52,136 nucleotides of DNA from a virus: positions 1 to 52,136 of IMG/VR virus record IMGVR_UViG_3300033412_000022. One strand, 5' to 3'. Both the position numbers and the translations under genes were made by a program. Every line of letters begins with the position of its first letter. The first letter of the stretch is position 1. The notes under the pieces are model-generated. The model saw only the letters and a list, made by a program, of their open reading frames with translations, was not told the origin of the DNA and did not search any database. Positions 7,058 to 52,136 of the stretch are shown here, one piece after another.

Positions 7058-7083
7058 GGGATTATTCGGCGCCGAATAATCCC
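7058..7083. repeat. Palindrome copy 1: GGGATTATTCGGCGCCGAATAATCCC (26 bp, perfect)
   Basis: Lies between the convergent int and 388-aa genes. It shares the 16-bp core TATTCGGCGCCGAATA with 41214..41235 and 52010..52025; the copy at 19331..19350 has one core mismatch. Confidence 0.9.
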
Positions 7084-7169
7084 GCCTAACACAGGCGGCA
7101 TAGCCCGGTGGGATCATTATACAATAGGGAAAAGTGACTGGTGCCCGGAACAAAATTTGGAAACGGGAA

Positions 7170-8336
7170 TCAAATATTCCAATCACTGAACTCTGCCACA
7201 ACCTTTCTCCAGGGTCTCACCCAGTTCAGCCCGTTATTTTCGTCTTCATCCATACGGATTTTTCTGGTAATCAGCCGCGTCCACTTTTCTTCGGCGTGCA
7301 AAAGCAACGTTTGAACATCCAGCCCCTCGTTTACAATTCGATTCTCGATTTGTGCAAACCAGTACAAATATTGGCACCAGCCTAGCCGAACCCAGCTGGG
7401 GCGTTGTTTCCCAATTGGTGGCGGGTTCGAAATTAGACTTAGAATAACCGGCGAATACGGATTATCGCCTAAATCGCCAAGCAAACGTTGCCTGGAAAGA
7501 CGCAACACATCCGGTTCACGCAGAAAGGCCAAAAGTGATTCTTCGGTCCAATACGGTTTCATCCCTTTTGATTTTCCGCCACCGGTGTACCGTTTTGGAT
7601 CATAACGCCTTGACGTCCAATGCTTACCTGTTGCACAAACGCTGGCCCCTGCGTACTTCCATAGCACAATGTCGGATGACGTGCGGCTAACGATCACACG
7701 GAATCCGGCGCCCTCAAGGAGACTGATTAACTTCATCACGCCCAGTAGGTCATCGCTCTGATTCAGTTCGCGTCGTGAAGGCGTATTACCCACGAGAACT
7801 AGATATATTTCTTTTGAATCCGTGCGCGACAGTATAGACGCAATTTGCTCCGATCTACCGCCCTGCGCAATATCAGGTAAACTAATGACCGCTGTTTGAA
7901 TCACCTGAACATGGGAGCCTGATAGCTGGTTCGTTAAGAACCCACAGATGAAGACCGATAAGTCGTAAAAACTATCGTGGTAATGTTTTGGCACATCTAT
8001 AGGCGAACAGACTTTGTTGATGCCAAGGTTCAGGCATAAGTCAGCCAATCGCTGGCTTAATTGGTACCACCAAGTCTCGCTCCCTCGGTCACCACTTTCA
8101 AGTGCTGGTGGGAAATACGGCCATTGAGGTAAGTAACCGCTACGATTACCAGGACAATACAGTTCAGGGTCAAAAATCAAGTCAAAATCAGGTTTGCCAT
8201 ATAACTGACTGATGTCTTTCTCGATTTCTTCCCGCTCGCCATTAAAAGGGCTGAGGATTGCTCCTTTGAATTGGGCCAAGTGAGGTTCTTGTATGAGGCT
8301 CAAACTCTGGTGGCCCATCTGATAGTACACAGCCAT
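7170..8336 (-). CDS. Hypothetical 388-aa protein (third gene of the kinase island)
   Basis: Long ORF in a lower-GC region. I recognise no family motif. Confidence 0.7.
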   Translation of the reverse strand: MAVYYQMGHQSLSLIQEPHLAQFKGAILSPFNGEREEIEKDISQLYGKPDFDLIFDPELYCPGNRSGYLPQWPYFPPALESGDRGSETWWYQLSQRLADLCLNLGINKVCSPIDVPKHYHDSFYDLSVFICGFLTNQLSGSHVQVIQTAVISLPDIAQGGRSEQIASILSRTDSKEIYLVLVGNTPSRRELNQSDDLLGVMKLISLLEGAGFRVIVSRTSSDIVLWKYAGASVCATGKHWTSRRYDPKRYTGGGKSKGMKPYWTEESLLAFLREPDVLRLSRQRLLGDLGDNPYSPVILSLISNPPPIGKQRPSWVRLGWCQYLYWFAQIENRIVNEGLDVQTLLLHAEEKWTRLITRKIRMDEDENNGLNWVRPWRKVVAEFSDWNI

Positions 8337-8382
8337 TGTGCGACATCCTTTGACGGTAAAGTTACATCAACAATGAGAGGTT

Positions 8383-9219
8383 TCATTTCCAATCATTTAA
8401 CAGTTCATGTGGTCGCGTGTATCGCCGAACAGGCCACGAGGCAACCATTTTATAGAGAACCTTCAAATTTGAGGCGGAACAGGCGTTCGCAAAACGACGG
8501 GATACGACATGCTTCGATCCGACTTTTCTTACAACATCGTCTTGTGTATCATTCGGCTCGCTATAAGGGTGAAAACCGAATATACAAAACGAAAATAGAA
8601 CCCCCAACGCGAACTGGTCGGTTCTCCAGTCGATCATGCTTGTGTCATTGTTGAGTTGTTCTGGTGCTGAGTAGAACGCAGTACCTGGCCCCCTCGATTG
8701 CCCTGAAGCGGTCAGCGAGTACTGGGACAAATCGCGCACAAGACCAAAGTCTACAATAACTGGGGTGATGTTATCAGGACGGAACATTACATTTTCCGGT
8801 TTTAGATCCCGATGAACAATCTTCTTTTCAGCCATCTGAGCTATCGCCGGAATAAGTTGGTGACCAAGAGCTAGAAGTTCATCTCGCGTCATCAAGCTGC
8901 GGCGTAGTCGAGCTGTGAGTGTCCCACCCGATAAAAACTCCTCTATCAGATAGAGGTACGATTGGCCGCTATAGTCGAACACTCCAGACGAATGCAACCG
9001 AGCAAGGTTATCATGGGCGCAAAGCGCCATTGCTGCAATCTCCCGATCAGTTCTCTCTGACCTTGATTTCGTTGGATCAAAGATTTTCAAGGCGAAAGAC
9101 TCACCTTGAGCGTCCTTAATATGGAACGTTTCTTTGTATGCTCCTGCTGCTTTATAGCCGAGGAATTGAAACTGGAGACTACGACAAACCTCTGTTGCAA
9201 CCTGCTCGAATTGTGGCAT
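8383..9219 (-). CDS. Hanks-type (eukaryotic-like) Ser/Thr protein kinase, kinase domain only
   Basis: FALKIF (beta3 Lys), HRDLKPEN catalytic loop, DFG (DFGLVRD), and APE (YSAPEQ). Confidence 0.85.
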   Translation of the reverse strand: MPQFEQVATEVCRSLQFQFLGYKAAGAYKETFHIKDAQGESFALKIFDPTKSRSERTDREIAAMALCAHDNLARLHSSGVFDYSGQSYLYLIEEFLSGGTLTARLRRSLMTRDELLALGHQLIPAIAQMAEKKIVHRDLKPENVMFRPDNITPVIVDFGLVRDLSQYSLTASGQSRGPGTAFYSAPEQLNNDTSMIDWRTDQFALGVLFSFCIFGFHPYSEPNDTQDDVVRKVGSKHVVSRRFANACSASNLKVLYKMVASWPVRRYTRPHELLNDWK

Positions 9220-9643
9220 TCTGAGTGTCTCCTGACGAGAAAAACTTTGCTTCGTCCGACAACCAAGGCTGAAGTGGTTCTACCAGCGGCGCTTCATAAA
9301 GAACAACCACCTTATCGTCTTTAATGAAACAGATGCCCACTTCCCGGACTTCGAATTCCCACACGAAGCGAAATGCGGCGACGGCAATATTTTCAGGCAC
9401 GACTATGTATGACCGATGGGCAAAACAGGTGTTGCGGTAAGCCTGTTGGAGCGCCTTGCGCCATTTGGTCAGTTTCGCTTCAAAGGCAATAACGGTATCA
9501 TCATCGGCCACGACGACCACATCGGTACGACCGTTGGTATGGTCGAACTGCTCGGAAATACTAACAGTACTCCACTCTGCAGGAAACTGGTTCAAACATC
9601 CTATAAAATCATCTACTAGCGCTTGTTCGTTATTATACGCCAT
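9179..9643 (-). CDS. PD-(D/E)xK nuclease-like protein
   Basis: GRTDVVVVADDDTVIAFEAKL gives the D...E-x-K pattern, followed by QQAYRN. GGGGGGA SD before ATG 9643. Overlaps the kinase start by 41 nt. Confidence 0.5.
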   Translation of the reverse strand: MAYNNEQALVDDFIGCLNQFPAEWSTVSISEQFDHTNGRTDVVVVADDDTVIAFEAKLTKWRKALQQAYRNTCFAHRSYIVVPENIAVAAFRFVWEFEVREVGICFIKDDKVVVLYEAPLVEPLQPWLSDEAKFFSSGDTQNATIRAGCNRGLS

Positions 9644-9922
9644 ATTCGTCCCCCCGCGCTCAACATTCGACTACGTTGTACAACCGAATCGGTCTCGTGT
9701 CTAGGAAATCTATATATTCGTTGGGTTGGCTAAAATCTGGGGATGCAATAATCTTGCCCACAGTGGAGCGCTGTATATATCGACCAGTCCGACCACGCCT
9801 AGTAGACTGGTAAGGGTGCTGGTAGACGCCCAACACGCCCTTTTCCGCTTTTCCAGTATCCTACTAGTGGCTAACCAATTACCAATCTTCCTCCATATAG
9901 ATGGTGAGAAAGGACCACTAAT

Positions 9923-10273
9923 TTGGAATCTCAGTTTTATCCGGCTGGCAAAGCAACTCCAGAATCTGATGTACCACAATTCGTAAAGCAATGGGTCAAA
10001 GACCACCCAAACATCTACAAACTCTCTATCGATCAACAGTGGCGCCGCTTTGAACAGGGAGAAAACAAGAACTTAACCCCTCATGCCATCATGGAGGCTG
10101 GTTACATTCAGGAAGGCAGTTCCTGGGTGGCATTAGGGGAAATGCCTGGTACATTCAAGGGTAGCGGAGAAATCGTTTCCCTCGAGCGCATAGATGATGG
10201 CGCCACCATCTATTATGTGGGTCAAGCTCCGCAACGCGGTTTCATTCTCTGGTGCGAGATAAACCAGAGTTAG
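9923..10273 (+). CDS. Hypothetical protein (start uncertain)
   Basis: 116-aa ORF with ordinary composition in a lower-GC region. The track start is TTG and no clear SD is present. Confidence 0.3.
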   Translation: MESQFYPAGKATPESDVPQFVKQWVKDHPNIYKLSIDQQWRRFEQGENKNLTPHAIMEAGYIQEGSSWVALGEMPGTFKGSGEIVSLERIDDGATIYYVGQAPQRGFILWCEINQS

Positions 10274-10321
10274 TTAAACCATAGGGGGTTGGAGTTTAAT
10301 CCGCACGGAATAATTCCCACC

Positions 10322-10546
10322 CTAACACCGGCGGTAATTACAGGCGGGCCGCTCGCTCAAACTCTCCGCGCATTCCATTACCATCAAATAACCCCGGCCC
10401 TCAATGTAATAGAGATTGGACAGCAGACCGCCCCCGCACTGGGGGCACACCCCGCGAATCCATTTCGGGTCGGATAGTTTCACCGCCTGAAGTTGCTTGG
10501 TCTCCGCCTCTTCCAGCGACCGCGCGTAAATCGGCCCCTTCGCCAT
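10322..10546 (-). CDS. Small zinc-ribbon-like hypothetical protein
   Basis: 74 aa with a CPQCGG motif plus C-terminal Cys residues. Confidence 0.45.
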   Translation of the reverse strand: MAKGPIYARSLEEAETKQLQAVKLSDPKWIRGVCPQCGGGLLSNLYYIEGRGYLMVMECAESLSERPACNYRRC

Positions 10547-10614
10547 CGTGATAACTCCTGCAAACCCGTTTGCTACAGTTTACAGTTTTGCAATCCGCCA
10601 AAGCAAACTTTTGT

Positions 10615-10643
10615 TTTCTTTTGTGTCGGTTTCGCGGTAGAAT
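10615..10643 (+). promoter_or_regulatory. Weak candidate promoter (TTTCTT-17-TAGAAT) for the methyltransferase operon
   Basis: -10 TAGAAT at 10638..10643. GGGAG SD and ATG 10665 follow. Confidence 0.3.
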
Positions 10644-10664
10644 TTGGGCAGGGAGAAAATCACG

Positions 10665-10898
10665 ATGTGCCTCATGCAACCACGGGAGGAAGGCAGGCGG
10701 ATGTCGAGAGTGCCAGACGATGGCGTCTACACGATAGCCCATCTGCGGAACGCGCTGGAGCGTGACGAGTGGGACATCCCGCAATACTGCCCGGAGGATG
10801 GCTATGGCCCGGAGGGGAACAACTTCGCCGTCTCCCCGATGGTGGACCGGGAAGAGCGGGAGTGGCAGGGAGTGCCTGTCATAGGAGCCAAAAGGTGA
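10665..10898 (+). CDS. Hypothetical protein
   Basis: ATG 10665 follows GGGAGAAAATCACG; 77 aa. Confidence 0.45.
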   Translation: MCLMQPREEGRRMSRVPDDGVYTIAHLRNALERDEWDIPQYCPEDGYGPEGNNFAVSPMVDREEREWQGVPVIGAKR

Positions 10899-11262: not shown

Positions 11263-12897
11263 GTGCGAACCAATGTGCTGTATTACGGCGATAACCTGCA
11301 TGTTCTGCGGGAGCGTATCCCCAATGACTCGGTAGACCTGATTTATCTGGACCCGCCGTTTTCGTCGGCCCGCGATTACTTTGTCATCTTTAAGGATAGG
11401 ACGGGTAAGGCAAGCGAGGCGCAGTCCGAGGCGTTCGGCGACACATGGGTGTGGGGTGAAGAGGCGGAGGCCGCGTACCGGGAACTCTGTGTCGGTTCGA
11501 CCCATCACCGGGTTAATCCAGACCTTGCCGTTACCATACAAGCGTTCCGAACCTTCCTGCGCGAGTCGCCGATGATGGCCTATCTGGTCAGCATGGCGAT
11601 ACGACTTCACGAGATGAAACGGGTTCTCAAACCGAACGGGAGCCTTTACCTGCACTGCGACTCGACCGCCAGTCACTACCTGAAGGTGCTGCTCGACACC
11701 ATCTTTACCCCCCAATGGTTTCGGAACGAAATCATATGGAAGCGCACTTCGGCGCACAACGATACCGCGCAGGGAACCAAAAGATACGGACGCAACCACG
11801 ACGTTATACTCTTCTACGCCGGGCCAGGAGCGACGTGGAATCCGCAATATATGCCCTATGACGAGGAGTATGTGCGCTCTTTCTACAAGCACAAGGATCC
11901 GGACGGGCGGCTTTACCGCCTTTCTGACATGACCGGACCGGGTGGGGCATCGAAGGGCAACCCGTATTATGAGGTCATGGGAGTCTCCCGATACTGGCGC
12001 TTCAGCCGCGAGAGGATGGAGCAACTTATCAGCGCAGGGCGGGTAGTGCAGACCAAGCCGGGGAGTGTGCCGCAACAGAAACGCTATCTGGACGAGATGC
12101 CCGGCGTTGCCGTTCAGGCTGTTTGGGATGACATCAAGCCCATCGGGGCGCAGGCCGCCGAACGGTTAGGTTACCCGACCCAGAAACCGCTCGCCCTGCT
12201 CGAGCGGATTATCCGCTGCAGCAGTAACCCTGGCGATGTCGTGATGGATACGTACTGCGGTTGCGGGACGACGGTCATGGCGGCGCATGGTCTTGCGCGA
12301 CAGTGGGTAGGAATAGACATAACTGCCGTCGCTACCTGCATTATCAAAGCGCGGTTGGAACAAACGTTTGGGGACCTTGCGGGGAAGGTGGAAGTCATCG
12401 GACTGCCGATGGATTTGGAAGGCGCGCGCACTCTCTTTGAGGCTGACTCACACCAGTTCCAGATATGGGCTTGTACGCTCATCGGCGCTTACCCGAACCA
12501 GAAGAAGGGCGCGGACAAAGGCATTGATGGATGGATGCCGATAGCGGATATGAACGATCACCCTCACAGGTGCGTTGTCCAAGTCAAAGGCGGGAAACCA
12601 ACCCTCAGTCAAATTCGCGACTTCTGCCATGTAGTGACGCGCGAGAAGGCCGCCATCGGGTTCTTCGTGACGCTCGGCGATATAACGCCCGCCATGAAGA
12701 CGGAGGCCGTCGCGGAAGGATTCTGGGACGCGGGACGCGGGCAGACCTATCCGAAGGTGCAGCTACTCTCCGTCGCGGAACTGATGACCGGACTGGCGAG
12801 GCCAAAGATGCCCACCCAGGAGAAGCGCTCCATCCTGGGCTATATGGCGAACCGACAGGAAAACAAAGGGCTTCAGCCAACGCTGGAGTTGGACTGA
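11263..12897 (+). CDS. Beta-class N6-adenine/N4-cytosine DNA methyltransferase fused to a C-terminal Mrr-like restriction-endonuclease domain
   Basis: Motif IV DLIYLDPPF, followed later by motif I VVMDTYCGCGTT (beta-class order). The C-terminus DKGIDGW...VVQVKGGKPTLSQIRDF...AAIGFFVTLGDITPA fits the Mrr_cat pattern. GAGGAGGAA SD before GTG 11263. Confidence 0.85.
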   Translation: MRTNVLYYGDNLHVLRERIPNDSVDLIYLDPPFSSARDYFVIFKDRTGKASEAQSEAFGDTWVWGEEAEAAYRELCVGSTHHRVNPDLAVTIQAFRTFLRESPMMAYLVSMAIRLHEMKRVLKPNGSLYLHCDSTASHYLKVLLDTIFTPQWFRNEIIWKRTSAHNDTAQGTKRYGRNHDVILFYAGPGATWNPQYMPYDEEYVRSFYKHKDPDGRLYRLSDMTGPGGASKGNPYYEVMGVSRYWRFSRERMEQLISAGRVVQTKPGSVPQQKRYLDEMPGVAVQAVWDDIKPIGAQAAERLGYPTQKPLALLERIIRCSSNPGDVVMDTYCGCGTTVMAAHGLARQWVGIDITAVATCIIKARLEQTFGDLAGKVEVIGLPMDLEGARTLFEADSHQFQIWACTLIGAYPNQKKGADKGIDGWMPIADMNDHPHRCVVQVKGGKPTLSQIRDFCHVVTREKAAIGFFVTLGDITPAMKTEAVAEGFWDAGRGQTYPKVQLLSVAELMTGLARPKMPTQEKRSILGYMANRQENKGLQPTLELD

Positions 12898-19330: not shown

Positions 19331-19350
19331 TTTATTCGGCGCGGAATAAT
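19331..19350. repeat. Palindrome copy 2 (degenerate): TTTATTCGGCGCGGAATAAT
   Basis: Matches the ATTATTCGGCGCCGAATAAT consensus at 18 of 20 positions. Intergenic, between the tail and lysis genes. Confidence 0.7.
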
Positions 19351-41213: not shown

Positions 41214-41235
41214 GATTATTCGGCGCCGAATAATC
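41214..41235. repeat. Palindrome copy 3: GATTATTCGGCGCCGAATAATC (22 bp, perfect)
   Basis: Directly downstream of the 94-aa ORF stop and 38 nt upstream of the terS ATG. Confidence 0.9.
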
Positions 41236-46057: not shown

Positions 46058-46655
46058 TGGATGCCACCTTTACCTGTCGTAATTTCCGACTACCAGGCCC
46101 GAACAATGGCGGTTGGTCCTTCGCCATCTGCTCCGTCCGCCACACTCCCCAGGTTGCTTCACACACTGCCAGAGCATCCGCAATGGCTTCACTATTGAGG
46201 CAGTCCCCTATCGGCAGGCGGTGGATGTTCCGCGCCCATGCCATCGCCGCGTTCTTCGCCGGGTAGCGCGTCATCTGGCTGCCATGGTAGGCGTTCTTGG
46301 CTGTCCCAGGGGCGATGTCGTGGTGTGTCGCGGAGAGGAGGCAGGGGAGGGAGAGGATGCCGCCGCAGACCATGAACAGCGCCTCTGTTACCGCGTTCTT
46401 GGTCTTGGGCGAATAGAACGGCCACTCGCACCCAACCACGTCCACGGGAGGCAACTCCTTCAGCCAACCCTCGATACTCTCCCGCATTTCGGCGACACGG
46501 ATGGAACGGTCAGTGAGGGAATGACCGGGACTGGTAGCGCCAACAGCGGCCCACCGGATAGGCCGGAAGCCGCTGCGGGTGCACTGCGCGAGCACCACCC
46601 CGGCCAGGTGCGTGCCGGGGTCAATGCCGAGGATATGGATTGCGGGAGGGTTCAT
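46050..46655 (-). CDS. RuvC-like Holliday junction resolvase
   Basis: ILGIDPGTHLAGVVL (catalytic Asp), VGCEWPF (Glu) and SEAIADALAV (Asp). Confidence 0.65.
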   Translation of the reverse strand: MNPPAIHILGIDPGTHLAGVVLAQCTRSGFRPIRWAAVGATSPGHSLTDRSIRVAEMRESIEGWLKELPPVDVVGCEWPFYSPKTKNAVTEALFMVCGGILSLPCLLSATHHDIAPGTAKNAYHGSQMTRYPAKNAAMAWARNIHRLPIGDCLNSEAIADALAVCEATWGVWRTEQMAKDQPPLFGPGSRKLRQVKVASNV

Positions 46656-47728
46656 TTAGCCGCTCTTTCCGTCTGCGCATTGTTTGCGTAGACCGGGTGC
46701 ATGGCGCTGGTGAGCGTCACTCGATCCCAAACGCCGTTGTTTTTCTTCAGCCAACGGGCGACGGGTTTGGGGAGCGGATGCGGGAGCGGGGCGTTGATAG
46801 CAACGACCAGGTATTCATCGGTGGTTCGGTCGAGGTAGATGTCGAATCGTCCTTCCTTCTCGAAAAGGCGCTTGCCTGTTTCTTCGGCTTCGGAGGAGGC
46901 TTTCATCCGGTCGAAGATGTTGGACGGGTCTGCCGGTTGGAATTTCGGCGTGGGGCCAGTAGGATTGATGTTTATTTTCGTTTCGCGACTAACGAGGTGA
47001 GGCCGACGATCCTCCGGGGTTGTTTTTGCCGGGTCGGGCCGCGTTGGGTTAATGGAAGATGTTTCCGCCCGCTTCCTCCGAGCGTAGTTGGCCTGGTAGG
47101 CGTTCATGCACTTTTTGCATTTGGAGGAGGCGCGGAACTTGCCGCGATAGTCGCAGACGGAGCATTCCCACTCTACTTCTGGTTGCGGGGTTTGAGCAGT
47201 CCCTCCTGGGGGTTCTGGAGCATCGCTTCCACTTCCGGCAACATCGCCAGGAGTCTCCGTCTCACTCCCCATAGGAACGCTATCCCGTTGTCCTGCGAGG
47301 TCGTTTCCTCCACTATCCCCAGGTCGAACTTCAGACTCTTCGCGTTGTCCTGAAGGCGCTTCAATCTCTTCTGGTTTCGTTTCCCCAGTTGCATCCTGTT
47401 CCTCCGCAGGTTCCTCGTCCCGATACCGATTGGTGTATTTCGCGTCGTTCACCAACTCCATCAGTGGGCGCACGGCAACCGCTTTCGGTATTGGCTCCGG
47501 CAGGTGCGGTTGTAGCACCATATTGGTTAGCGGATCCTCATCTTCGTCCATGCGAATCAACGAGCTGGTGAGACCCAGGCGGGCAAGACCTTCCTCAAAG
47601 TGGGCGCGCGCGGCTTCGAGGCGGACGCGACGAGCAGCGTCCGCCTCGAGCGCCTCTTCATCAAAACGGGCGTAAAGGTCAAAGATCGTTGCCCGGTTAT
47701 TCAGAATGATTTCTGCAACGTTAGCCAT
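46652..47728 (-). CDS. Acidic hypothetical protein with a central zinc ribbon
   Basis: WECSVCDY...CKKC. Start taken at ATG 47728 (ATGGCTAA overlap with the ThiF-like stop). Confidence 0.5.
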   Translation of the reverse strand: MANVAEIILNNRATIFDLYARFDEEALEADAARRVRLEAARAHFEEGLARLGLTSSLIRMDEDEDPLTNMVLQPHLPEPIPKAVAVRPLMELVNDAKYTNRYRDEEPAEEQDATGETKPEEIEAPSGQREESEVRPGDSGGNDLAGQRDSVPMGSETETPGDVAGSGSDAPEPPGGTAQTPQPEVEWECSVCDYRGKFRASSKCKKCMNAYQANYARRKRAETSSINPTRPDPAKTTPEDRRPHLVSRETKININPTGPTPKFQPADPSNIFDRMKASSEAEETGKRLFEKEGRFDIYLDRTTDEYLVVAINAPLPHPLPKPVARWLKKNNGVWDRVTLTSAMHPVYANNAQTERAAK

Positions 47729-48512
47729 TGGTGGCAGCCTTTCTTGTGCGTTTCTTGCCCGTTTGCGGGGCATCAGGCCTTGGGATGGGGATAGGCGTCA
47801 CGCGCCCTTCCAGCAGGTTAATCCAGTACCCGCAGGTGGTCAGTTCCCCGTCCCGGAAAAGCCTTTCAAGTAGGGAGAGCGCGAACGTCGCCACATGCTG
47901 ATTGATGTAGAGACCTTGCTCTTCCAGGGCTTCAGCCAGAGAACACGACGGGCGATTGTCCTCCGGTATGGTCTCGTCGAATATCTCCGGCAGAATCTCG
48001 GAGAGGTGGGGAAGCGGGCCGTCTGATTTCGTGACGAATGGCGTCCCCCGACCGAGAACAACCTGCCCGGTCTGCTGCGCGTTGGCGCAATCCAGCCAGT
48101 AGGTTGGGTAGTAGAAGTTGCGTTGCCAGTATCCGGCAATCTCCCTGCGCGCCTTTGCCGTGTCCACGCAGGTGATCGCGAAGTCCGCCCGGTCAATAAT
48201 GCGGCGCGTCTGATACTCCTCGCAGATCGCCTCCCAATCCGTGCCGAACCAGCAGTTCAGGCGGTGGGTCAGGATGTTCGCCTTGTAGCGCCCCACGTCC
48301 CCCGCCGCGAAGAGTTGGCGGCCAATATTGGACTCGCTTACCCTGTCCGGATCGAAGGTGAAGACCTGAAGGCCGTAGGGGTGGCCGAGTGCGCGCAGGG
48401 CCACATGAAGCCGCGCGAGACCGGTCAACATCTGGCTGCCGGTTCCGCCGCAACCGATCAGGTGAATCTTGATCCGCCGGGTGAGAAGGTCCGAGGGGAG
48501 GACGTGTTTCAT
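47721..48512 (-). CDS. ThiF/MoeB (E1-like) adenylyltransferase, PRTRC-type
   Basis: IHLIGCGGTGSQ Rossmann loop and FDPDRVSESNIGRQLF. The overall pattern matches my recollection of the PRTRC ThiF family. Confidence 0.75.
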   Translation of the reverse strand: MKHVLPSDLLTRRIKIHLIGCGGTGSQMLTGLARLHVALRALGHPYGLQVFTFDPDRVSESNIGRQLFAAGDVGRYKANILTHRLNCWFGTDWEAICEEYQTRRIIDRADFAITCVDTAKARREIAGYWQRNFYYPTYWLDCANAQQTGQVVLGRGTPFVTKSDGPLPHLSEILPEIFDETIPEDNRPSCSLAEALEEQGLYINQHVATFALSLLERLFRDGELTTCGYWINLLEGRVTPIPIPRPDAPQTGKKRTRKAATNG

Positions 48513-49213
48513 TTGTTCAGCACCTCCCGAACGGTCAGACCCTGCGGTATCAGATGATCATCCCAATCGAACGCCGCGCCAATCGCCGCTTTCCAGGCGC
48601 CGTCATGTCCGCCTAAGTAAGCGGTCAGGTTGTCGCCGCGGTTGGAGTGGGTGAAGTTGGTCTGGAAGAAAGCATCCTCCCAGAGCGGGATGTCCGCCGG
48701 GTTCGCGCGGTCCGGCAGGGTGATGTTCCCCCGGCACATATGCCCGTCGGCGTAGACGTTGAAGTAGGGCGCGGCAAATACCGGCGTGGTCTCGTCCGGT
48801 CGCTGTCGCCCCTGAAGCGCATAGATATAGAGGTTGGACGCGGTGGCGAGAAACAGCAAAGAGGGGTGGTTTACCTCTTCGCCGTTCACCGCCTCATCAA
48901 ACGCCTTGCGGCCCGTGCGGAAGTAGATGGTCTGGCGACGCCGGGGAGACCACCACAGAATACGCGACGGATCGGAATACAGCAGGTGCGGGTTGGTCAG
49001 GCGACGGAGCGGAGTTTCACCGCCTTCATCACTCCTGCCGACCTCGGCAAGCAGATCCGCCCATGCCGCGCGGGTGAGGAGTTCGCCCGGTCCTATCTCG
49101 CCGCCCTTCACCTTGTTCAGAGTGACCATCGTATGCGAGTCGCCCCGATAGATAAGGATGGCCTCCGTCAGGGAGAGGTGGGAACTGGTGGAGAGAACGA
49201 CATCTATATTCAC
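48509..49213 (-). CDS. PRTRC protein B-like (E2/UBC-like, tentative)
   Basis: 234 aa with an ATGA overlap on both sides. Conserved-looking PYFNVYADGHMCRGN with a candidate catalytic Cys. Confidence 0.5.
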   Translation of the reverse strand: MNIDVVLSTSSHLSLTEAILIYRGDSHTMVTLNKVKGGEIGPGELLTRAAWADLLAEVGRSDEGGETPLRRLTNPHLLYSDPSRILWWSPRRRQTIYFRTGRKAFDEAVNGEEVNHPSLLFLATASNLYIYALQGRQRPDETTPVFAAPYFNVYADGHMCRGNITLPDRANPADIPLWEDAFFQTNFTHSNRGDNLTAYLGGHDGAWKAAIGAAFDWDDHLIPQGLTVREVLNK

Positions 49214-50481
49214 GCGCGCACCTCGATTCTCTCTCCGACATAGGCGGGATTGTTAATGAGTTTCGCGCTCCAGGTCAGCGCGTAGAGAATCCTGTCGGCG
49301 AGAGCCAGAATCGCAAGCGTGTGCCGCATGGTCTCAATGGCCCACCAGAGCGTTCCCGGTTCGCGTCCGGACTGGGAGAGGTCGAAGCCGATCATCCACA
49401 CCATGTCCGTGTTCTCCACCTGTTGGATCATCTCGTTATGATCATCCATGAACCGGTCCACCCAGTCGTCCTTGTGCCACTGAATCAGGACGGGGATGGG
49501 TTGGCGGTTCTCAAAGCAATTCAGGTGGCATAGTTCGCGGTAACGCTTGGTCTTCACGCGCTTCATATCGCGAGGCTCTTGCACCAGGCGAGACAGGATT
49601 TCCGCGTCGGCAAGGATTTCCGCCGCCCATTCCCGTTCCTCGTTAAATACTCTCACACGGGCGCGGCGGATAGGCTCTGCTTGCCAGTTGTGGAACAGGG
49701 CTTCTTTGGGAACTTCGGCGAGAACAACGCCTTCGGGATCTCGCTCGTCCCAGGCTTCCTCATCCTCTTCCCGTTCCGAGTTGGCCCACTTCGGATCGGC
49801 AAGCCCCGTGGTATAGCGGAAGACATGACAGGTCAGGTCGTAGACATCCCAGGCGGCTTTCCCGATGGCCTTCTCCAGACGCTCCACGCCTTCGCCAACC
49901 ACTACATCGTGAACATGGCGGACGAGCTGCAAGCCGAATGCGCCGACACTTCTGGTTTCACGGGTGCCGTAAAATTGTAGCCAGACACCGGGTTGCCAGT
50001 CCGTGCCTGGAAGATGCTGCACATCGTCGGTGTACACAAATTTTAGGAAGCGGAAAACGCCGCGCGTATCGTCAATCCCGGCCAGGGTCGCGAGCCGGGA
50101 AATCCCGTTGTTGATGGCATCCACCAGCGGGTGGCTATCGCGGGACATCAGGCCGATGTAATCCTCTTCCTCCAGTATCCCAGCCTTCAGGAGACCCTGC
50201 GCGATATGGGCAAGCGCTACGGTGGAGTTGGACGCGCCAACATCCACCGATTTCGGCACGTCCTTCCCCAGGGCGGGAAGCGTCAGTAGATCGGGGGCAG
50301 GGATTCGGACGGGAACGGGATTTTTTCGCCGGGTCGCGCGCGTTTGACTTCCTGGCCGATTCGCCGCGCGAGCGATTGGGCCTCCGGGCTGTTGACCCAG
50401 GCCGAGACCAGGGGATGGTCCGATACCACCCCCTTGCCCGATAAGACACTCTGGATTGCCTGTGATAGTAGCTCTTCGCAT
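49210..50481 (-). CDS. Hypothetical 423-aa protein in the PRTRC protein F position
   Basis: GAGGAAG SD before ATG 50481. Assigned by position only. Confidence 0.5.
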   Translation of the reverse strand: MRRATITGNPECLIGQGGGIGPSPGLGLGQQPGGPIARAANRPGSQTRATRRKNPVPVRIPAPDLLTLPALGKDVPKSVDVGASNSTVALAHIAQGLLKAGILEEEDYIGLMSRDSHPLVDAINNGISRLATLAGIDDTRGVFRFLKFVYTDDVQHLPGTDWQPGVWLQFYGTRETRSVGAFGLQLVRHVHDVVVGEGVERLEKAIGKAAWDVYDLTCHVFRYTTGLADPKWANSEREEDEEAWDERDPEGVVLAEVPKEALFHNWQAEPIRRARVRVFNEEREWAAEILADAEILSRLVQEPRDMKRVKTKRYRELCHLNCFENRQPIPVLIQWHKDDWVDRFMDDHNEMIQQVENTDMVWMIGFDLSQSGREPGTLWWAIETMRHTLAILALADRILYALTWSAKLINNPAYVGERIEVRA

Positions 50482-50493
50482 TCCGCTTCCTCG

Positions 50494-50709
50494 CTATCCC
50501 TTGGTCGCAACCGCCCGTTTGAACTCCCACGTTTCCGTGCCATCTTTCGACTCCTTCAGGGTGAGGGTAGCATTGGTCAGGTCCGGGTAGGACTGCGCGA
50601 GAATGGCTTTAACCTGCTCCGGCGTTGACGCAGGGTTAGGATCGGCGAGCCGCATGGTGCCGTGCATGAAAATCCGGCGGGTTCGCTTCGGGGTTTCTGT
50701 GGTGCTCAT
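50494..50709 (-). CDS. Ubiquitin-like (beta-grasp) small protein, PRTRC protein C-like
   Basis: 71 aa. RIFMHGTMRLADPNPASTPEQVKAILAQSYPDLTNATL...WEFKRAVATKG ends in Gly. ATGA overlap with the parB-like stop. Confidence 0.55.
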   Translation of the reverse strand: MSTTETPKRTRRIFMHGTMRLADPNPASTPEQVKAILAQSYPDLTNATLTLKESKDGTETWEFKRAVATKG

Positions 50710-52112
50710 TCTGGATTCTCCAAAACCGTTTCGATGTCAATGCCGCGCTCCTCTGCGGTTTTGCGGAGGTGGGCCGTCAGCCATTCGCTTGGCGAGAGAG
50801 AAGCGCCGCCCTCGTCACTGTCGCGCAAAGCCTTGATGAGTTTGCGGGCAGGCGTGGGCAGCAGATACTCCTGATGGCGCCAGAGCATGGCGAGAGCCAC
50901 ATCCAGCGTCCAGTTAAGATCCCAGAGCCGGTCATCATCGCTCTGGAGGATGGTGGTAGCAATGCGCGCGCCGCCCTTTGGCGCATCTACCGCTTCCGGT
51001 TCGGCGGTCACGACCTTCGGCGCTGGTGCGGGAGTAGTAGCCACCGGCGGCGCAACGGGCGCGACAGGCTGGGTGATGGCATCAGGACTGGTGGCGGGTG
51101 GCGCGGCATCCTCTGCCTCTTCCTGCTCGCTCTCGGTTTCCGGGGTAGGTTCCGGCCCCGGCTCCGGCGTTGTCTCCGGTTCCTCAAGCGGAGGAATCGT
51201 TTCCTCGATGTCTTCCGCAGGTTCCGAGGCGGGCGGCGCGACTATCGCCGGTTCCGGTTCGGGGGCGGGAGCAGGCTCTTCCTGTTTCGTTTCCTCTGCC
51301 GCTGGTTCAAGTCCCAGCGGCAGAGCGACCTGCGCGGCCTTGGCCCGGGCTTCGTCCTCCAACTGGGAGAGGAGCGCGGCAACCCGCAGGCGCGTCTGCT
51401 TGAGGTTCAAGCCCTCTTCCTCAAGTTGTTCCGCCACCAACTGCAGCGCCGACGGATACTCCGACAGGCGGCAGAGTTCCATCGCGTGGGATTCCGGAAT
51501 GACGCCCAGGTCCACCTTGTCGCGAATGGCGAGCGGCAGATTGCGCCACAGACGGAGCCTGTTGTTGATAAGCGGCTGGGATACTTTGAGCCGTTCTCCC
51601 AGCGCGGCCTGCGTCAGGGTGGGTTCCAGCAGGAGCATCCGGTCATAGGTTGCCGCGCATTCAATCGGCGAGAGGTCGGAGCGGTGCGCGTTTTCGGCGT
51701 AGGCCGTCGCCAGGTGTTCCGCGTCGGTCATGTCCTGGACAATAATCGCGGGGATGGCAGAAAGGTCCGCGATCCCCGCCGCGCGCCAACGACGCTCGCC
51801 GGTAACAATGACATAGCGCCGGTCGGCGAGAGCGGGATGCGCGAAGTCCGCCGCCTTGTTCGCATAGCGGACGGTGATCGGCTGGATAACCCCGCGCAGA
51901 CGGAGATCGTTCGCCAGGTCTCGAAGCGCGTCAGGGTCAATGCGTTTCCGGGGATTGAGCGGCGAGTTGCCGATGTCCTCCAGACGGATCATTTCTATTT
52001 GCGGCGCGCTATTCGGCGCCGAATATTCTTCTGTGTTCAAATCGTCCTCCGGGTCATCGTGTATTGCCCTCATTGCGTCCTCGCATCGGGCGAGATAGTT
52101 GTAGGGGGGCAT
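50706..52112 (-). CDS. parB: ParB/Srx-family protein with a GERR arginine patch, an HTH, a Pro/Glu-rich linker and a C-terminal domain
   Basis: IEMIRLEDIGNSPLNPRK, VIVTGERRWRAA, and HTH LTQAALGERLKVSQPLINNRL. The start could be ATG 52112 or ATG 52073. Confidence 0.85.
   Translation of the reverse strand: MPPYNYLARCEDAMRAIHDDPEDDLNTEEYSAPNSAPQIEMIRLEDIGNSPLNPRKRIDPDALRDLANDLRLRGVIQPITVRYANKAADFAHPALADRRYVIVTGERRWRAAGIADLSAIPAIIVQDMTDAEHLATAYAENAHRSDLSPIECAATYDRMLLLEPTLTQAALGERLKVSQPLINNRLRLWRNLPLAIRDKVDLGVIPESHAMELCRLSEYPSALQLVAEQLEEEGLNLKQTRLRVAALLSQLEDEARAKAAQVALPLGLEPAAEETKQEEPAPAPEPEPAIVAPPASEPAEDIEETIPPLEEPETTPEPGPEPTPETESEQEEAEDAAPPATSPDAITQPVAPVAPPVATTPAPAPKVVTAEPEAVDAPKGGARIATTILQSDDDRLWDLNWTLDVALAMLWRHQEYLLPTPARKLIKALRDSDEGGASLSPSEWLTAHLRKTAEERGIDIETVLENPE
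52010..52025. repeat. Palindrome copy 4: TATTCGGCGCCGAATA (16 bp, perfect) inside the parB-like 5' coding region
   Basis: Same 16-bp core as copies 1 and 3. Confidence 0.85.
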
Positions 52113-52136
52113 TGTCTACCCCCCCCCCGATTTTTT
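52092..52136. repeat. Terminal direct repeat, copy 2 (identical to 1..45)
   Basis: Exact 45-nt identity with the start of the window. Confidence 0.95.

Follow-up and report, generated by a model that had tools for sequence, protein, structure and literature searches.

In this work we analysed a viral contig, IMG/VR record IMGVR_UViG_3300033412_000022, over its whole length of 52,136 nucleotides (nt; hereafter the window), with attention to a cluster of minus-strand genes that encodes a ParB protein, a ubiquitin-like protein (Ubl) and proteins similar to the E1 and E2 enzymes of ubiquitin conjugation. An earlier note, made from the DNA letters alone, had assigned five of these genes (ParB, C, F, B and ThiF) to the ParB-Related, ThiF-Related Cassette (PRTRC; TIGR03734-TIGR03742), which is the TIGRFAM name for operon type 6d of Iyer, Burroughs & Aravind 2006 (PMC1779556). 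Searches with hidden Markov models (HMMs) bear out this assignment, as three of the genes score above the curated NCBIfam cut-offs: ThiF with TIGR03736 (290.8 bits, cut-off 144.75, E=6.7e-87, 243/245 profile positions), the E2-like protein with TIGR03737 (143.8 bits, cut-off 131.45, 4.9e-42) and the Ubl with TIGR03738 (57.3 bits, cut-off 45.95, 1.2e-15). The Pfam matches are Prok-E2_D (PF14460, 1.2e-34), Prok_Ub (PF14454, 3.9e-16) and ThiF (5.3e-14). From these matches and from the gene order we have very little doubt that the cassette is a variant of the PRTRC system that has neither the JAB peptidase (protein A) nor protein E, is coupled to ParB and counts six genes, which we read in the order ParB-Ubl-small open reading frame (ORF)-F-E2-ThiF.

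The strand and coordinates of the five ORFs, the 4-nt overlaps at 50706/50709, 49210/49213 and 48509/48512 and the 12-nt gap before 50481 are all as the note had given them. Its five genes are real; its count was one short, a sixth gene (the small ORF at 50283-50543) having been overlooked. Table 1 lists the genes, with lengths in amino acids (aa), together with palindromes that are discussed below.

Table 1. Genes of the PRTRC-type cassette and parS-like palindromes in the window
Feature	Position	Strand	Description
ParB	50706-52112	-	468 aa; ParB_N CTP domain, GERRWRAA, helix-turn-helix (HTH), linker, C-terminal domain; first cassette gene
PRTRC protein C (Ubl)	50494-50709	-	71 aa, ends ...RAVATKG, stop directly after Gly
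Small ORF	50283-50543	-	86 aa from ATG 50543, or 48 aa from GTG 50429 (JGI)
Protein F	49210-50286	-	~358 aa from CTG 50286, or 349 aa from GTG 50259 (JGI)
423-aa ORF (over-long model of F)	49210-50481	-	ATG 50481 probably not the start of F
PRTRC protein B (E2-like, Prok-E2_D)	48509-49213	-	234 aa, sole Cys = C160, GTG start
PRTRC ThiF-family E1-like enzyme	47721-48512	-	263 aa, minimal adenylation domain
Candidate parS-like palindrome TATTCGGCGCCGAATA	52010-52025		perfect 16 bp, inside parB (codons ~30-35)
Candidate parS-like palindrome	7063-7078		perfect copy, intergenic, just downstream of integrase; extends to 26 bp
Candidate parS-like palindrome	41217-41232		perfect copy, intergenic, early operon/packaging genes; extends to 22 bp
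Candidate parS-like palindrome TATTCGGCGCGGAATA	19333-19348		one mismatch, intergenic between tail genes

The ends of the window are identical over 45 bp (1-45 = 52092-52136), which makes the contig either circular or terminally redundant; without the overlap it measures 52,091 bp. Because the contig is circular, a RecT-like gene at 387-1433 truly lies upstream of ParB, whose upstream neighbours at the window start are a 131-aa ORF and this RecT-like annealing protein (phrog_561, 1.2e-24). On the 3' side of ThiF there follow a 358/373-aa zinc-ribbon protein, a RuvC-like protein, an ASCH protein and a 1,164-aa primase/helicase-like protein. The cassette is therefore flanked by RecT on one side and by RuvC and primase on the other, within an early recombination/replication operon. 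By its gene content the element is a temperate tailed phage, as the note had supposed when it placed the cassette in the early operon of such a phage: PHROG, Pfam and BLAST matches include a tyrosine integrase, an HK97-type major head protein, a tape measure and a portal, and there are also an S49 prohead protease, an M15 endolysin, a large terminase ~27% identical to phage terminases and XRE-type regulators at 3.6-4.4 kb.

PRTRC relatives and the JAB-less subtype

Type 6d was described in 2006 from comparative genomics (PMC1779556). Its Ub-like protein has a conserved Gly at the terminus, its JAB peptidase contains a JAB-N domain, and an E1-like protein is accompanied by an E2-like one in which the classical His is lacking and a His downstream of the Cys is conserved instead; the remaining member is a 'novel, rapidly diverging alpha-helical protein'. 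The canonical plasmid gene order is ParB-E-C-F-B-A-ThiF. When we typed 142 loci with family HMMs, giving each ORF its best family, 112 of them turned out to be E-C-F-B-A-ThiF, mostly from Burkholderiales prophages; RefSeq annotates this order in Ralstonia phage Dina (gp02-gp07), and the same set is found in Burkholderia phage BgVeeders33.

With this system the window shares the C, B and ThiF families above their curated cut-offs, an apparently homologous F, the gene order C-F-B-ThiF, carriage on a mobile element, the invariant TKG terminus of the Ubl and a ParB gene upstream, as on plasmids. It differs in several respects: protein A (JAB plus JAB-N), a constant member in the 2006 description, is missing, and so are protein E and a recognisable D; the ParB looks generic and Spo0J/Noc-like, falls far under the PRTRC-ParB equivalog cut-off and directly abuts the Ubl; a peptide equivalent to the Ubl tail of other loci has its own ORF; and F is only ~16-24% identical to canonical F.

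The earlier note took carriage of such a cassette by a phage to be unusual, and here it overstated the case. Relatives of PRTRC ThiF occur on 190 and 186 IMG/VR viral contigs (two scans), in 60 GTDB genomes, on at least 562 metagenome contigs and in the cultured phages Dina, YO105_4 and BgVeeders33, while protein B is present on 340 PLSDB plasmids. The cassette was already remarked in B. gladioli prophage(s) in 2026, with the comment that its function 'has not been studied' (PMC13366799). With ~190 IMG/VR contigs and annotated cultured phages at hand, phage carriage is neither rare nor new. Thus the PRTRC family and its presence in phages were known before; what is added here is the JAB-less, E-less phage variant with its features, the co-variation of JAB with the Ubl tail, the small ORF and a fusion of F with E2.

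The subtype to which the window belongs recurs. ParB-Ubl-small ORF-F-E2-ThiF without JAB was also found in the loci L143-145, L146, L147, L148, L103 and L117, in every context retrieved. L143, the nearest relative found, is a 47.9-kb phage-like contig, and L103 and L117 are contigs of Armatimonas metagenome-assembled genomes, the only named relatives of this subtype; within the IMG/VR and JGI metagenome collections there is no relative above 51% identity. The neighbourhoods are phage-like or of replication-module type (HTH repressor, P22-like genes, Prim-Pol/D5, SNF2 helicase, HNH). Identity to L143 falls off in a gradient from the Ubl (90%) through ThiF (72%), E2 (60%), ParB (50%) and the small ORF (48%) to F (35%).

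This recurrence bears on one explanation of the locus, namely that it is a remnant from which JAB and E were deleted and which is on its way to a pseudogene. Such a view could appeal to the two missing proteins and to the scores of F and ParB under the curated PRTRC cut-offs. However, the frames are intact and joined by coupled 4-nt overlaps, the catalytic residues are in place, and nine or more distinct loci share the JAB-less architecture, at identities that go down to 35-50% and on several branches of the tree. Compared with L143, all six genes have a ratio of nonsynonymous to synonymous substitution rates (dN/dS) of 0.04-0.45, at a dS that is near saturation (0.9-1.5); as every gene stays below 0.5, the cassette is under purifying selection and not decaying. 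These conservation data effectively refute the idea of a remnant.

The Ubl terminus and the JAB peptidase

The earlier note could not recognise a JAB peptidase, and all further searches came back empty as well. Tblastn with two phage PRTRC-A proteins against the circularised genome gave nothing (E>2), an HMM of 120 homologues run on all 1,039 stop-to-stop frames had a best E of 0.26, and the JAMM motif HxH...SxxD is absent from every frame of the circular genome. In the place between B and ThiF where canonical cassettes have protein A, the two window genes overlap by 4 nt. For protein E, tblastn with two E proteins against the circular genome stayed at E>0.05 and an HMM from 111 homologues, run on all frames, at a best E of 0.19. 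The circular 52,091-bp genome as a whole has neither JAB nor E. NCBIfam scans of 18 window ORFs returned none of the proteins A, D and E (TIGR03735, TIGR03739 and TIGR03741), no D probe having been run on the remaining ORFs; D is also missing from the phage and plasmid cassettes inspected. The note had speculated that protein E might be fused to ParB as its C-terminal half. We rejected this, since the E HMM matches there only the low-complexity, Pro/Glu-rich linker (2.0 and 6.1 bits) and with high bias.

The 71-aa Ubl ends in RAVATKG, as had been noticed before, and its stop codon directly follows the invariant terminal Gly (...ATKG-stop, Gly71); hence the protein would be made in its mature form and a trimming step would be unnecessary. 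That Gly, in the context '...TKG', is invariant in 132/132 plus 48/48 protein C homologues (180/180). What follows it depends on the presence of the JAB gene. In the first set of loci, the Ubl of 103 of the 115 JAB-containing loci has a tail of 57-152 aa past the Gly, six have 1-3 residues and six have none, while the Ubl stops exactly at the Gly in 16/16 JAB-less ones; residues past the Gly go with JAB in 109/109 of this set. In an independent set of 48 metagenome loci the JAB-less ones end at the Gly in 10/10 cases, and residues past the Gly are accompanied by JAB in 25/25 (Fisher p=1.7e-4, phylogeny ignored). Over the 179 typed loci combined, residues past the Gly mean a JAB in 134/134 and lack of JAB means lack of a tail in 26/26; L143, L146, L147, L148 and L150 are extra JAB-less cases beyond this count. 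The position of the Gly was set by alignment; placing it by a regular expression gave four false 'JAB-less with tail' loci. JAB-less loci fall on at least five branches of the ThiF tree (a crude one, UPGMA on p-distances), so that the condition does not go back to a single event.

The simplest reading of this co-variation would be that protein A trims the Ubl precursor and so exposes the Gly. Steps of this kind are known from two other bacterial systems: the Bil JAB protein BilC pre-processes its Ubl, exposing the Gly (10.1101/2023.09.26.559546), and the Bub peptidase-E1 cuts a Ubl fusion (10.1101/2024.11.21.623953). The JAB of PRTRC probably also deconjugates, and the window system would be without that reverse activity.

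The tails past TKG in the JAB-containing loci (L001-L142) are of at least two unrelated types, one with '...DELISVRQKI...CPLLDEEVSFIDALYARY' and another with 'MTLxELR...LPSxxxPVLP'. Some loci, BgVeeders33 for instance, have type one fused to the Ubl and type two as an ORF of its own.

The sixth gene, protein F and the proposed conjugation steps

A tail-like peptide is also encoded in the window, in a gene of its own. The first ~65 codons of the 423-aa ORF are rich in Gly, Pro and Arg and have a position-specific GC content of 0.70/0.68/0.47, against ~0.65/0.45/0.73 in real genes, whereas the +1 frame of the same DNA is gene-like (0.68/0.47/0.72) and holds the 86-aa small ORF. Its ATG is preceded by the Shine-Dalgarno sequence AAGGA and it overlaps the 3' end of the Ubl gene by 50 nt (the last 16 Ubl codons); it ends in ...IPFPSESLPPIY followed by a TGA that overlaps the CTG at the start of F (CTGA). 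The JGI gene calls for this contig likewise have a gene here, of 48 aa, and an F of 349 aa. In L143 the homologue has 84 aa and also overlaps the Ubl gene by 50 nt; the two proteins share 48% identity from end to end (E=4e-23), and the alignment score between the window and L143 is 126 in the small-ORF frame and 50 and 58 in the other frames; dN/dS is 0.44.

Equivalents with the same C-terminal motif are found in L103, L117, L087, L146 and L147. Directly before F the motif reads LPLPSSALPPIF in L143, LPLPSPLLPPL in L103 and PPSASLPLLP in L147, each closed by a stop, and it is likewise found at the end of Ubl tails of one class and of a 61-aa ORF that stands by itself in Burkholderiales phages (...RLPSADLPVLP, then stop). 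It occurs in 59/117 of the peptides that end beside F and in 0.96% of all frames. By position and motif, the small ORF matches the 'tail' of protein C or the separate 'x59' ORF of JAB-containing relatives. The homology itself is moderate: the MOD2 HMM gives 12.8 bits (E=3.6e-5 over 4 targets), and hhalign P=4e-4 at a probability of only 35%. An HMM built from all tails did not reach the window small ORF, only the 'LP...VLP' type of tail being related. On this sequence evidence the tail appears to be a real module, either fused to the Ubl or free-standing. Both RefSeq plasmid cassettes that we checked have it unannotated, at L149:4709-4927 and L150:2681-2884. L149 is the Piscinibacter plasmid NZ_CP136337, where the small ORF ends in ...LRIPSALLLPLA and a stop, and L150 is Deinococcus ficus pDFI3, with the end ...SSQESLLLP and a stop; the Deinococcus cassette likewise has no protein A, and three additional genes separate its small ORF from B.

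In eukaryotes ubiquitin is made fused to ribosomal proteins and is freed by deubiquitinases. The JAB-containing PRTRC loci are similar in that their Ubl is made with an extension past the reactive Gly, and since this extension is elsewhere a free-standing gene, both products of the cleavage would be functional. They differ in that the PRTRC extension is a ~60-aa peptide without sequence relationship to the eukaryotic ones.

It follows for protein F that the 423-aa gene model of the earlier note should be shortened, as its first ~65-74 residues are probably not translated as part of F. The N-terminal motif of F, LxLPxL...(I/V)P, begins at residue 65 of that ORF, and the likely start is either the CTG that overlaps the small-ORF TGA (CTGA, seen also in L143) or the GTG at 50259; the starts of both F and the small ORF are ambiguous between the candidates of Table 1. 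The Ubl and the over-extended F frame are in the same frame with one stop between them in the window (50481-50496), in L103 (676-684) and in L117 (4896-4904). We considered a read-through product of Ubl and F and rejected it, because the intervening codons are non-coding-like in position GC and another frame is conserved there; the shared frame would be a coincidence or a relic. We also rejected a -1 frameshift at GAAAAAAT by which translation would pass from the small ORF to F, as there is no proper slippery heptamer, and termination-reinitiation at CTGA or a GTG start is preferred.

The F of the window is weak against TIGR03742 (24.2 bits, cut-off 58.4) and has no Pfam match; an HMM of its own family gives it 172 bits. 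F of BgVeeders33 aligns with it over the full length (E=1e-3), and its subtype relatives have weak or faint matches to PF14456 (alpha-hel2), so we regard it, from these alignments, as what appears to be a divergent PRTRC F. Word-index protein searches gave almost no matches, and an exhaustive HMMER search gave 52 cluster representatives only, the nearest 37% identical. It is the fastest-evolving gene of the cassette (35% identity to L143, dN/dS 0.45). In the JAB-less, ParB-linked locus L148 (6001-8016, Logan SRR27868866) F and the E2-like protein B are one protein of 671 aa, and by the Rosetta-stone argument this fusion suggests that F acts with E2. An AlphaFold2 model of F from a subtype-rich alignment has a mean predicted local distance difference test score (pLDDT) of 86.3 and a predicted template modelling score (pTM) of 0.86; its single match in a viral library is an uncharacterised Caudovirales protein. 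A first model, made with homologues of canonical F only (pLDDT 56), gave meaningless Foldseek matches and was superseded.

The predicted catalytic residues of E1 and E2 are intact. The GCGGTGS loop of ThiF and the second motif (FDPDRVSESNIGRQ), both pointed out in the earlier note, are present, and in 133 unique homologues the residues G20-C-G-G-x-G-S26, D54, D56, R65-Q66, K77 and D117 are kept in at least 95%, and N62 is conserved as well; Cys190 ('PSC') is conserved in 100% of them and stands, as we presume, at the position of the crossover-loop Cys of ThiF and MoeB. The enzyme has no inserted Cys domain and is 72% identical to that of L143, with dN/dS 0.22. The lone Cys of the 234-aa E2-like protein, which the note had also seen, lies in NVYADGHMCRGN. 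Among 129 unique homologues this Cys160 never varies, N152 and H189 are conserved in 99%, and the His downstream of the Cys agrees with the description of the type 6d E2 by Iyer et al. The long form of E2 with the GTG start is backed by HMM coverage from residue 15 and by L143, to which it is 60% identical. The Ubl has 90% identity to the Ubl of L143 and dN/dS 0.04. By sequence, E2, E1 and Ubl have no solved relatives in the PDB.

It would be logical to suggest the following order of events. The 71-aa Ubl, translated already with the reactive Gly71 as its end, would be adenylated at this residue by the minimal ThiF-type E1, which would probably carry it on Cys190; it would then be handed on to Cys160 of the E2-like protein B, with the helical and fast-evolving F serving as E2-bound specificity partner, and would finally be joined covalently to one or more target proteins. 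Since the element encodes no deconjugase, the tagging would run in one direction only, unless an enzyme of the host can undo it. As the Ubl ends in ...K-G, the tryptic remnant of a conjugate would be a single Gly (+57 Da).

That the cassette performs protein conjugation is, on these sequence features, what we consider probable. A different chemistry, in which the Ubl acts as a sulfur carrier (thiocarboxylate) or serves another adenylation reaction, as in ThiF-ThiS and MoeB-MoaD, could be read from the weak ThiF/MoeB-type matches (NF006395 2.2e-8, TIGR02356 8e-7), from the bare adenylation domain of E1, shared with MoeB and ThiF, and from the terminal Gly, which thiocarboxylate formation needs as well. 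Against it speaks the constant presence of the E2-like protein, whose Cys is invariant and which is sometimes fused to F. The loci examined contain no sulfurtransferase, rhodanese, ThiG/MoaE or cofactor gene, the cassette resides on mobile elements, and the JAB peptidase and the tailed Ubl precursors of its relatives are characteristic of conjugation systems. We hold the sulfur-carrier alternative for very improbable.

ParB and the role of the cassette

ParB of the window matches ParB_N (7.7e-21) and HTH_ParB (1e-11) in Pfam, contains the GERRWRAA patch reported in the earlier note and continues with a ~130-aa Pro/Glu-rich linker and an ~80-aa C-terminal domain. It scores 109 bits with TIGR00180 (cut-off 58) and 75.9 bits with TIGR03734 PRTRC_parB (cut-off 278.6), the latter through the N-terminal domain only (profile 6-138 of 555). 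Among solved structures, those of CTP-bound Noc and Spo0J come nearest (7OL9, 7NFU, 6SDK). Judging by these scores it is a seemingly generic CTP-type ParB, nearer to Spo0J/Noc models than to PRTRC ParB. Its gene is directly upstream of the Ubl gene also in L143, L146, L147, L148, L117 and L103; the two genes overlap by 4, 4, 8 and 1 nt in the window, L143, L147 and L148, and are separated by a 4-nt gap in L146.

Four copies of a parS-like palindrome (Table 1) are candidate binding sites of this ParB. At up to three mismatches 0.35 sites are expected, and none of 100 shuffles reached four. The relatives L146 (ATTCGGCACCGAAT), L147 (TTATGCCGCGCGGCATAA) and L148 (TTTGCCGCGCGGCAAA) have palindromes in the 5' part of their own parB, and related ones are found in L117 (CATTCCGCGCGGAATG) and L103 (TGTTCCGCGCGGAATG), in both inside gene B, and in L143 (ATTATTCCGTACGGAATAAT). 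The resemblance to the ParB-CTP clamps of Spo0J/Noc/KorB type includes ParB_N with the GERRxRA CTP-binding patch, the HTH, and 16-bp palindromes that are dispersed over the replicon, with one of them inside parB. Differences are that no ParA was found among the ORFs scanned, that ParB has a long Pro/Glu-rich linker and a lineage-specific C-terminal domain, that the site ATTC-S-GCGC-S-GAAT is unlike canonical parS, and that the gene is coupled translationally to the Ubl gene.

We propose that the conjugation module may act together with the translationally coupled CTP-type ParB and the four parS-like sites on the phage genome, and that proteins at or near the ParB-DNA complex would be modified during establishment or maintenance of the element. 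The role would then be one of mobile-element housekeeping or establishment and not of host defence. We favour such a role because of the constant linkage to ParB or E, the position in the early operon and the neighbours on plasmids, where the cassette (e.g. in Piscinibacter gummiphilus NZ_CP136337) adjoins antirestriction, methylase, SSB and TopA genes. Taken by itself this part is tentative, and we would not put it at an even chance; the best explanation as a whole, which comprises the identity of the variant, the conjugation cascade and the ParB-linked role, we consider rather likely. One may even suggest that PRTRC is a system of 'chromatin-tagging', in which ParB is clamped at parS and E1, E2 and F tag ParB or nearby proteins, in the manner of SUMO, for control of the element. 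This is an unlikely extension. If true, the tag would govern silencing, replication licensing or partition, the JAB-less variant would leave an irreversible mark, and the tail peptide of ~60-86 aa, freed by JAB or separately encoded, would be a second product and a general component of PRTRC.

The same neighbourhood can be read as that of a weapon directed at the host. The cascade, expressed early, would tag host proteins of immunity or DNA surveillance, F would recognise the targets, and ParB would be a mere neighbour. In this case the location directly after RecT in the early operon, the company of antirestriction gene, N6-methylase, SSB and TopA on the plasmid, usual for anti-defence and establishment functions, the fast evolution of F (35% against 90% identity to L143 for the Ubl; 'rapidly diverging' according to Iyer et al.) and a one-way tagging without JAB, fitting an inhibitor, would all find their place. 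However, a mere neighbour would hardly explain why ParB or E stands beside the Ubl in most typed loci and why ParB is coupled in this subtype. The dN/dS of F remains below 1 and gives no direct sign of positive selection, and the cassette is not mentioned in the anti-defence literature searched. We find this counter-defence or establishment role doubtful when taken singly, and nearly as plausible as the ParB-linked one, just below which we rank it.

Less likely than both of these would be a defence of the lysogen, in which the prophage tags structural proteins of incoming phages, in a Bil-like way, and so provides anti-phage defence or superinfection exclusion; on its own we consider this improbable. 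Characterised bacterial E1/E2/Ubl operons (Bil, CBASS Cap2, probably Bub) serve immunity, the element has an integrase and is temperate, defence genes are common in prophages, and ThiF is weakly similar to the E1 models of Cap2 and BilD. The kinship to Bil, Bub and CBASS that the earlier note had drawn holds at the level of the superfamily and not more closely: PADLOC matches nothing for Ubl, F, E2 or ParB, and in ThiF only the Rossmann region (residues ~13-130), weakly, with Cap2 E1-E2 (best 9.9e-8) and BilD (3e-3); the NCBIfam 6A-MBL cap2_3 model gives ThiF 22.8 bits at a cut-off of 320. The cassette moreover lies within the early operon with overlapping frames and not in the low-GC accessory island of the genome, it is a conserved part of plasmids, phages and elements resembling integrative and conjugative ones, together with ParB or E, and unlike Bil it includes no deubiquitinase.

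Bil (BilABCD; Hor et al. 2023/24, Chambers et al. 2023/24) has in common with the window the E1-E2-Ubl logic with catalytic cysteines, and its JAB exposes the Gly of the Ubl, a role that protein A would have in PRTRC. It differs in that BilD consists of tandem inactive and active adenylation domains and a mobile Cys domain, where the E1 of the window is a single domain of 263 aa, and in being a gene set of host defence islands, where the window has a module of the phage early operon that includes ParB and lacks a deubiquitinase. Bub (Ye et al. 2024, 10.1101/2024.11.21.623953) and CBASS Cap2/Cap3 are likewise bacterial conjugation systems of E1/E2 type; in Bub a peptidase frees the functional Ubl from a fusion precursor, much as the Ubl of JAB-containing PRTRC loci is made as a precursor with a tail. 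In Cap2, E2 and E1 are fused, and what it conjugates is a cGAS-like enzyme and not a free Ubl; neither Bub nor Cap2/Cap3 is tied to ParB.

Several points weigh against the ParB-linked conjugation cascade that we prefer. The ParB link is contextual by nature, being read from gene neighbourhood: most phage-borne cassettes (Burkholderiales, 112 loci) have protein E and not ParB beside the Ubl, the ORFs scanned include no ParA-type partner, and the palindromes could bind another regulator. As to the chemistry, the beta-grasp fold of the Ubl and the UBC (ubiquitin-conjugating) fold of the E2 are predicted from Pfam and NCBIfam profiles and from Iyer et al., the bare-domain E1 might pass the adenylate straight to E2 or use other chemistry, and Bub pathways use oxyesters (10.1101/2024.11.21.623953). 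The role of F as an 'adaptor' is inferred from the fusion and the evolutionary rate; F has no conserved Cys and no recognisable fold, and its model found no match in the PDB (best E 2.1). JAB is kept in 19 loci whose Ubl already ends at the Gly and therefore does more than trimming, so its loss in the window may alter the function and not merely simplify it. The loci behind our counts were retrieved through degenerate sequence patterns and are neither random nor phylogenetically independent. A literature search on any PRTRC system found passing mentions and no biochemical or genetic experiment.

The window cascade can be of use for further studies. It is minimal and JAB-less, and its Ubl would need no processing, which should make it simpler to reconstitute; the variant also predicts that the essential job of JAB in the tailed systems is cleavage after the TKG motif. 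The natural F-E2 fusion is a pointer to F as E2 partner, the small protein, fused to the Ubl or free-standing, was previously unannotated, and a ParB with candidate sites offers a way to ask why a protein that clamps DNA accompanies a ubiquitin-like system. If proteins bound to DNA or proteins of the host are modified, this would be the first Ubl conjugation used by, and not against, bacterial viruses and plasmids. Gene models need to be mended accordingly, with over-extended starts of F and a small ORF that is missing in the two RefSeq plasmid cassettes mentioned above.

Some other features of the genome deserve a mention. At 13-45 (= 52104-52136) there is a hairpin on the plus strand that resembles a terminator: a G6 run and a C10 run lie 9 nt apart, with GATTTTTT behind them. 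In its minus-strand form the ATG of ParB would be in the loop, just after a G10 run. It could exert translational control of ParB or be a slippage-prone homopolymer. The 131-aa ORF (374 to 52070) reads through this hairpin and overlaps the start of ParB by 43 nt.

Just 3' of ThiF, and overlapping its stop by 8 nt, the zinc-ribbon gene at 46652-47728 (minus strand) encodes 358 aa from the JGI start. The protein contains acidic stretches of low complexity and a zinc-ribbon-like motif, CxxC...CxxC. No family matches it, and as none of the related loci has a homologue, it does not belong to the conserved cassette.

A low-GC island at ~7100-10800 adjoins the integrase (GC 0.47-0.50 against ~0.59-0.62 elsewhere). 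It carries several ORFs without family match and, at 8383-9219 (minus strand), a kinase of Ser/Thr type, whose top NCBIfam match is the methylation-associated defence kinase MAD6 (3e-25, far under the cut-off). The island looks like a moron or a defence-type cargo region that is separate from the PRTRC cassette. Further on, at 11263-12897 (plus strand, opposite to the structural genes), there is a 544-aa DNA methyltransferase (phrog_67, 1.5e-55), which may be compared with the N6-methylase just upstream of ParB in the Piscinibacter plasmid cassette.

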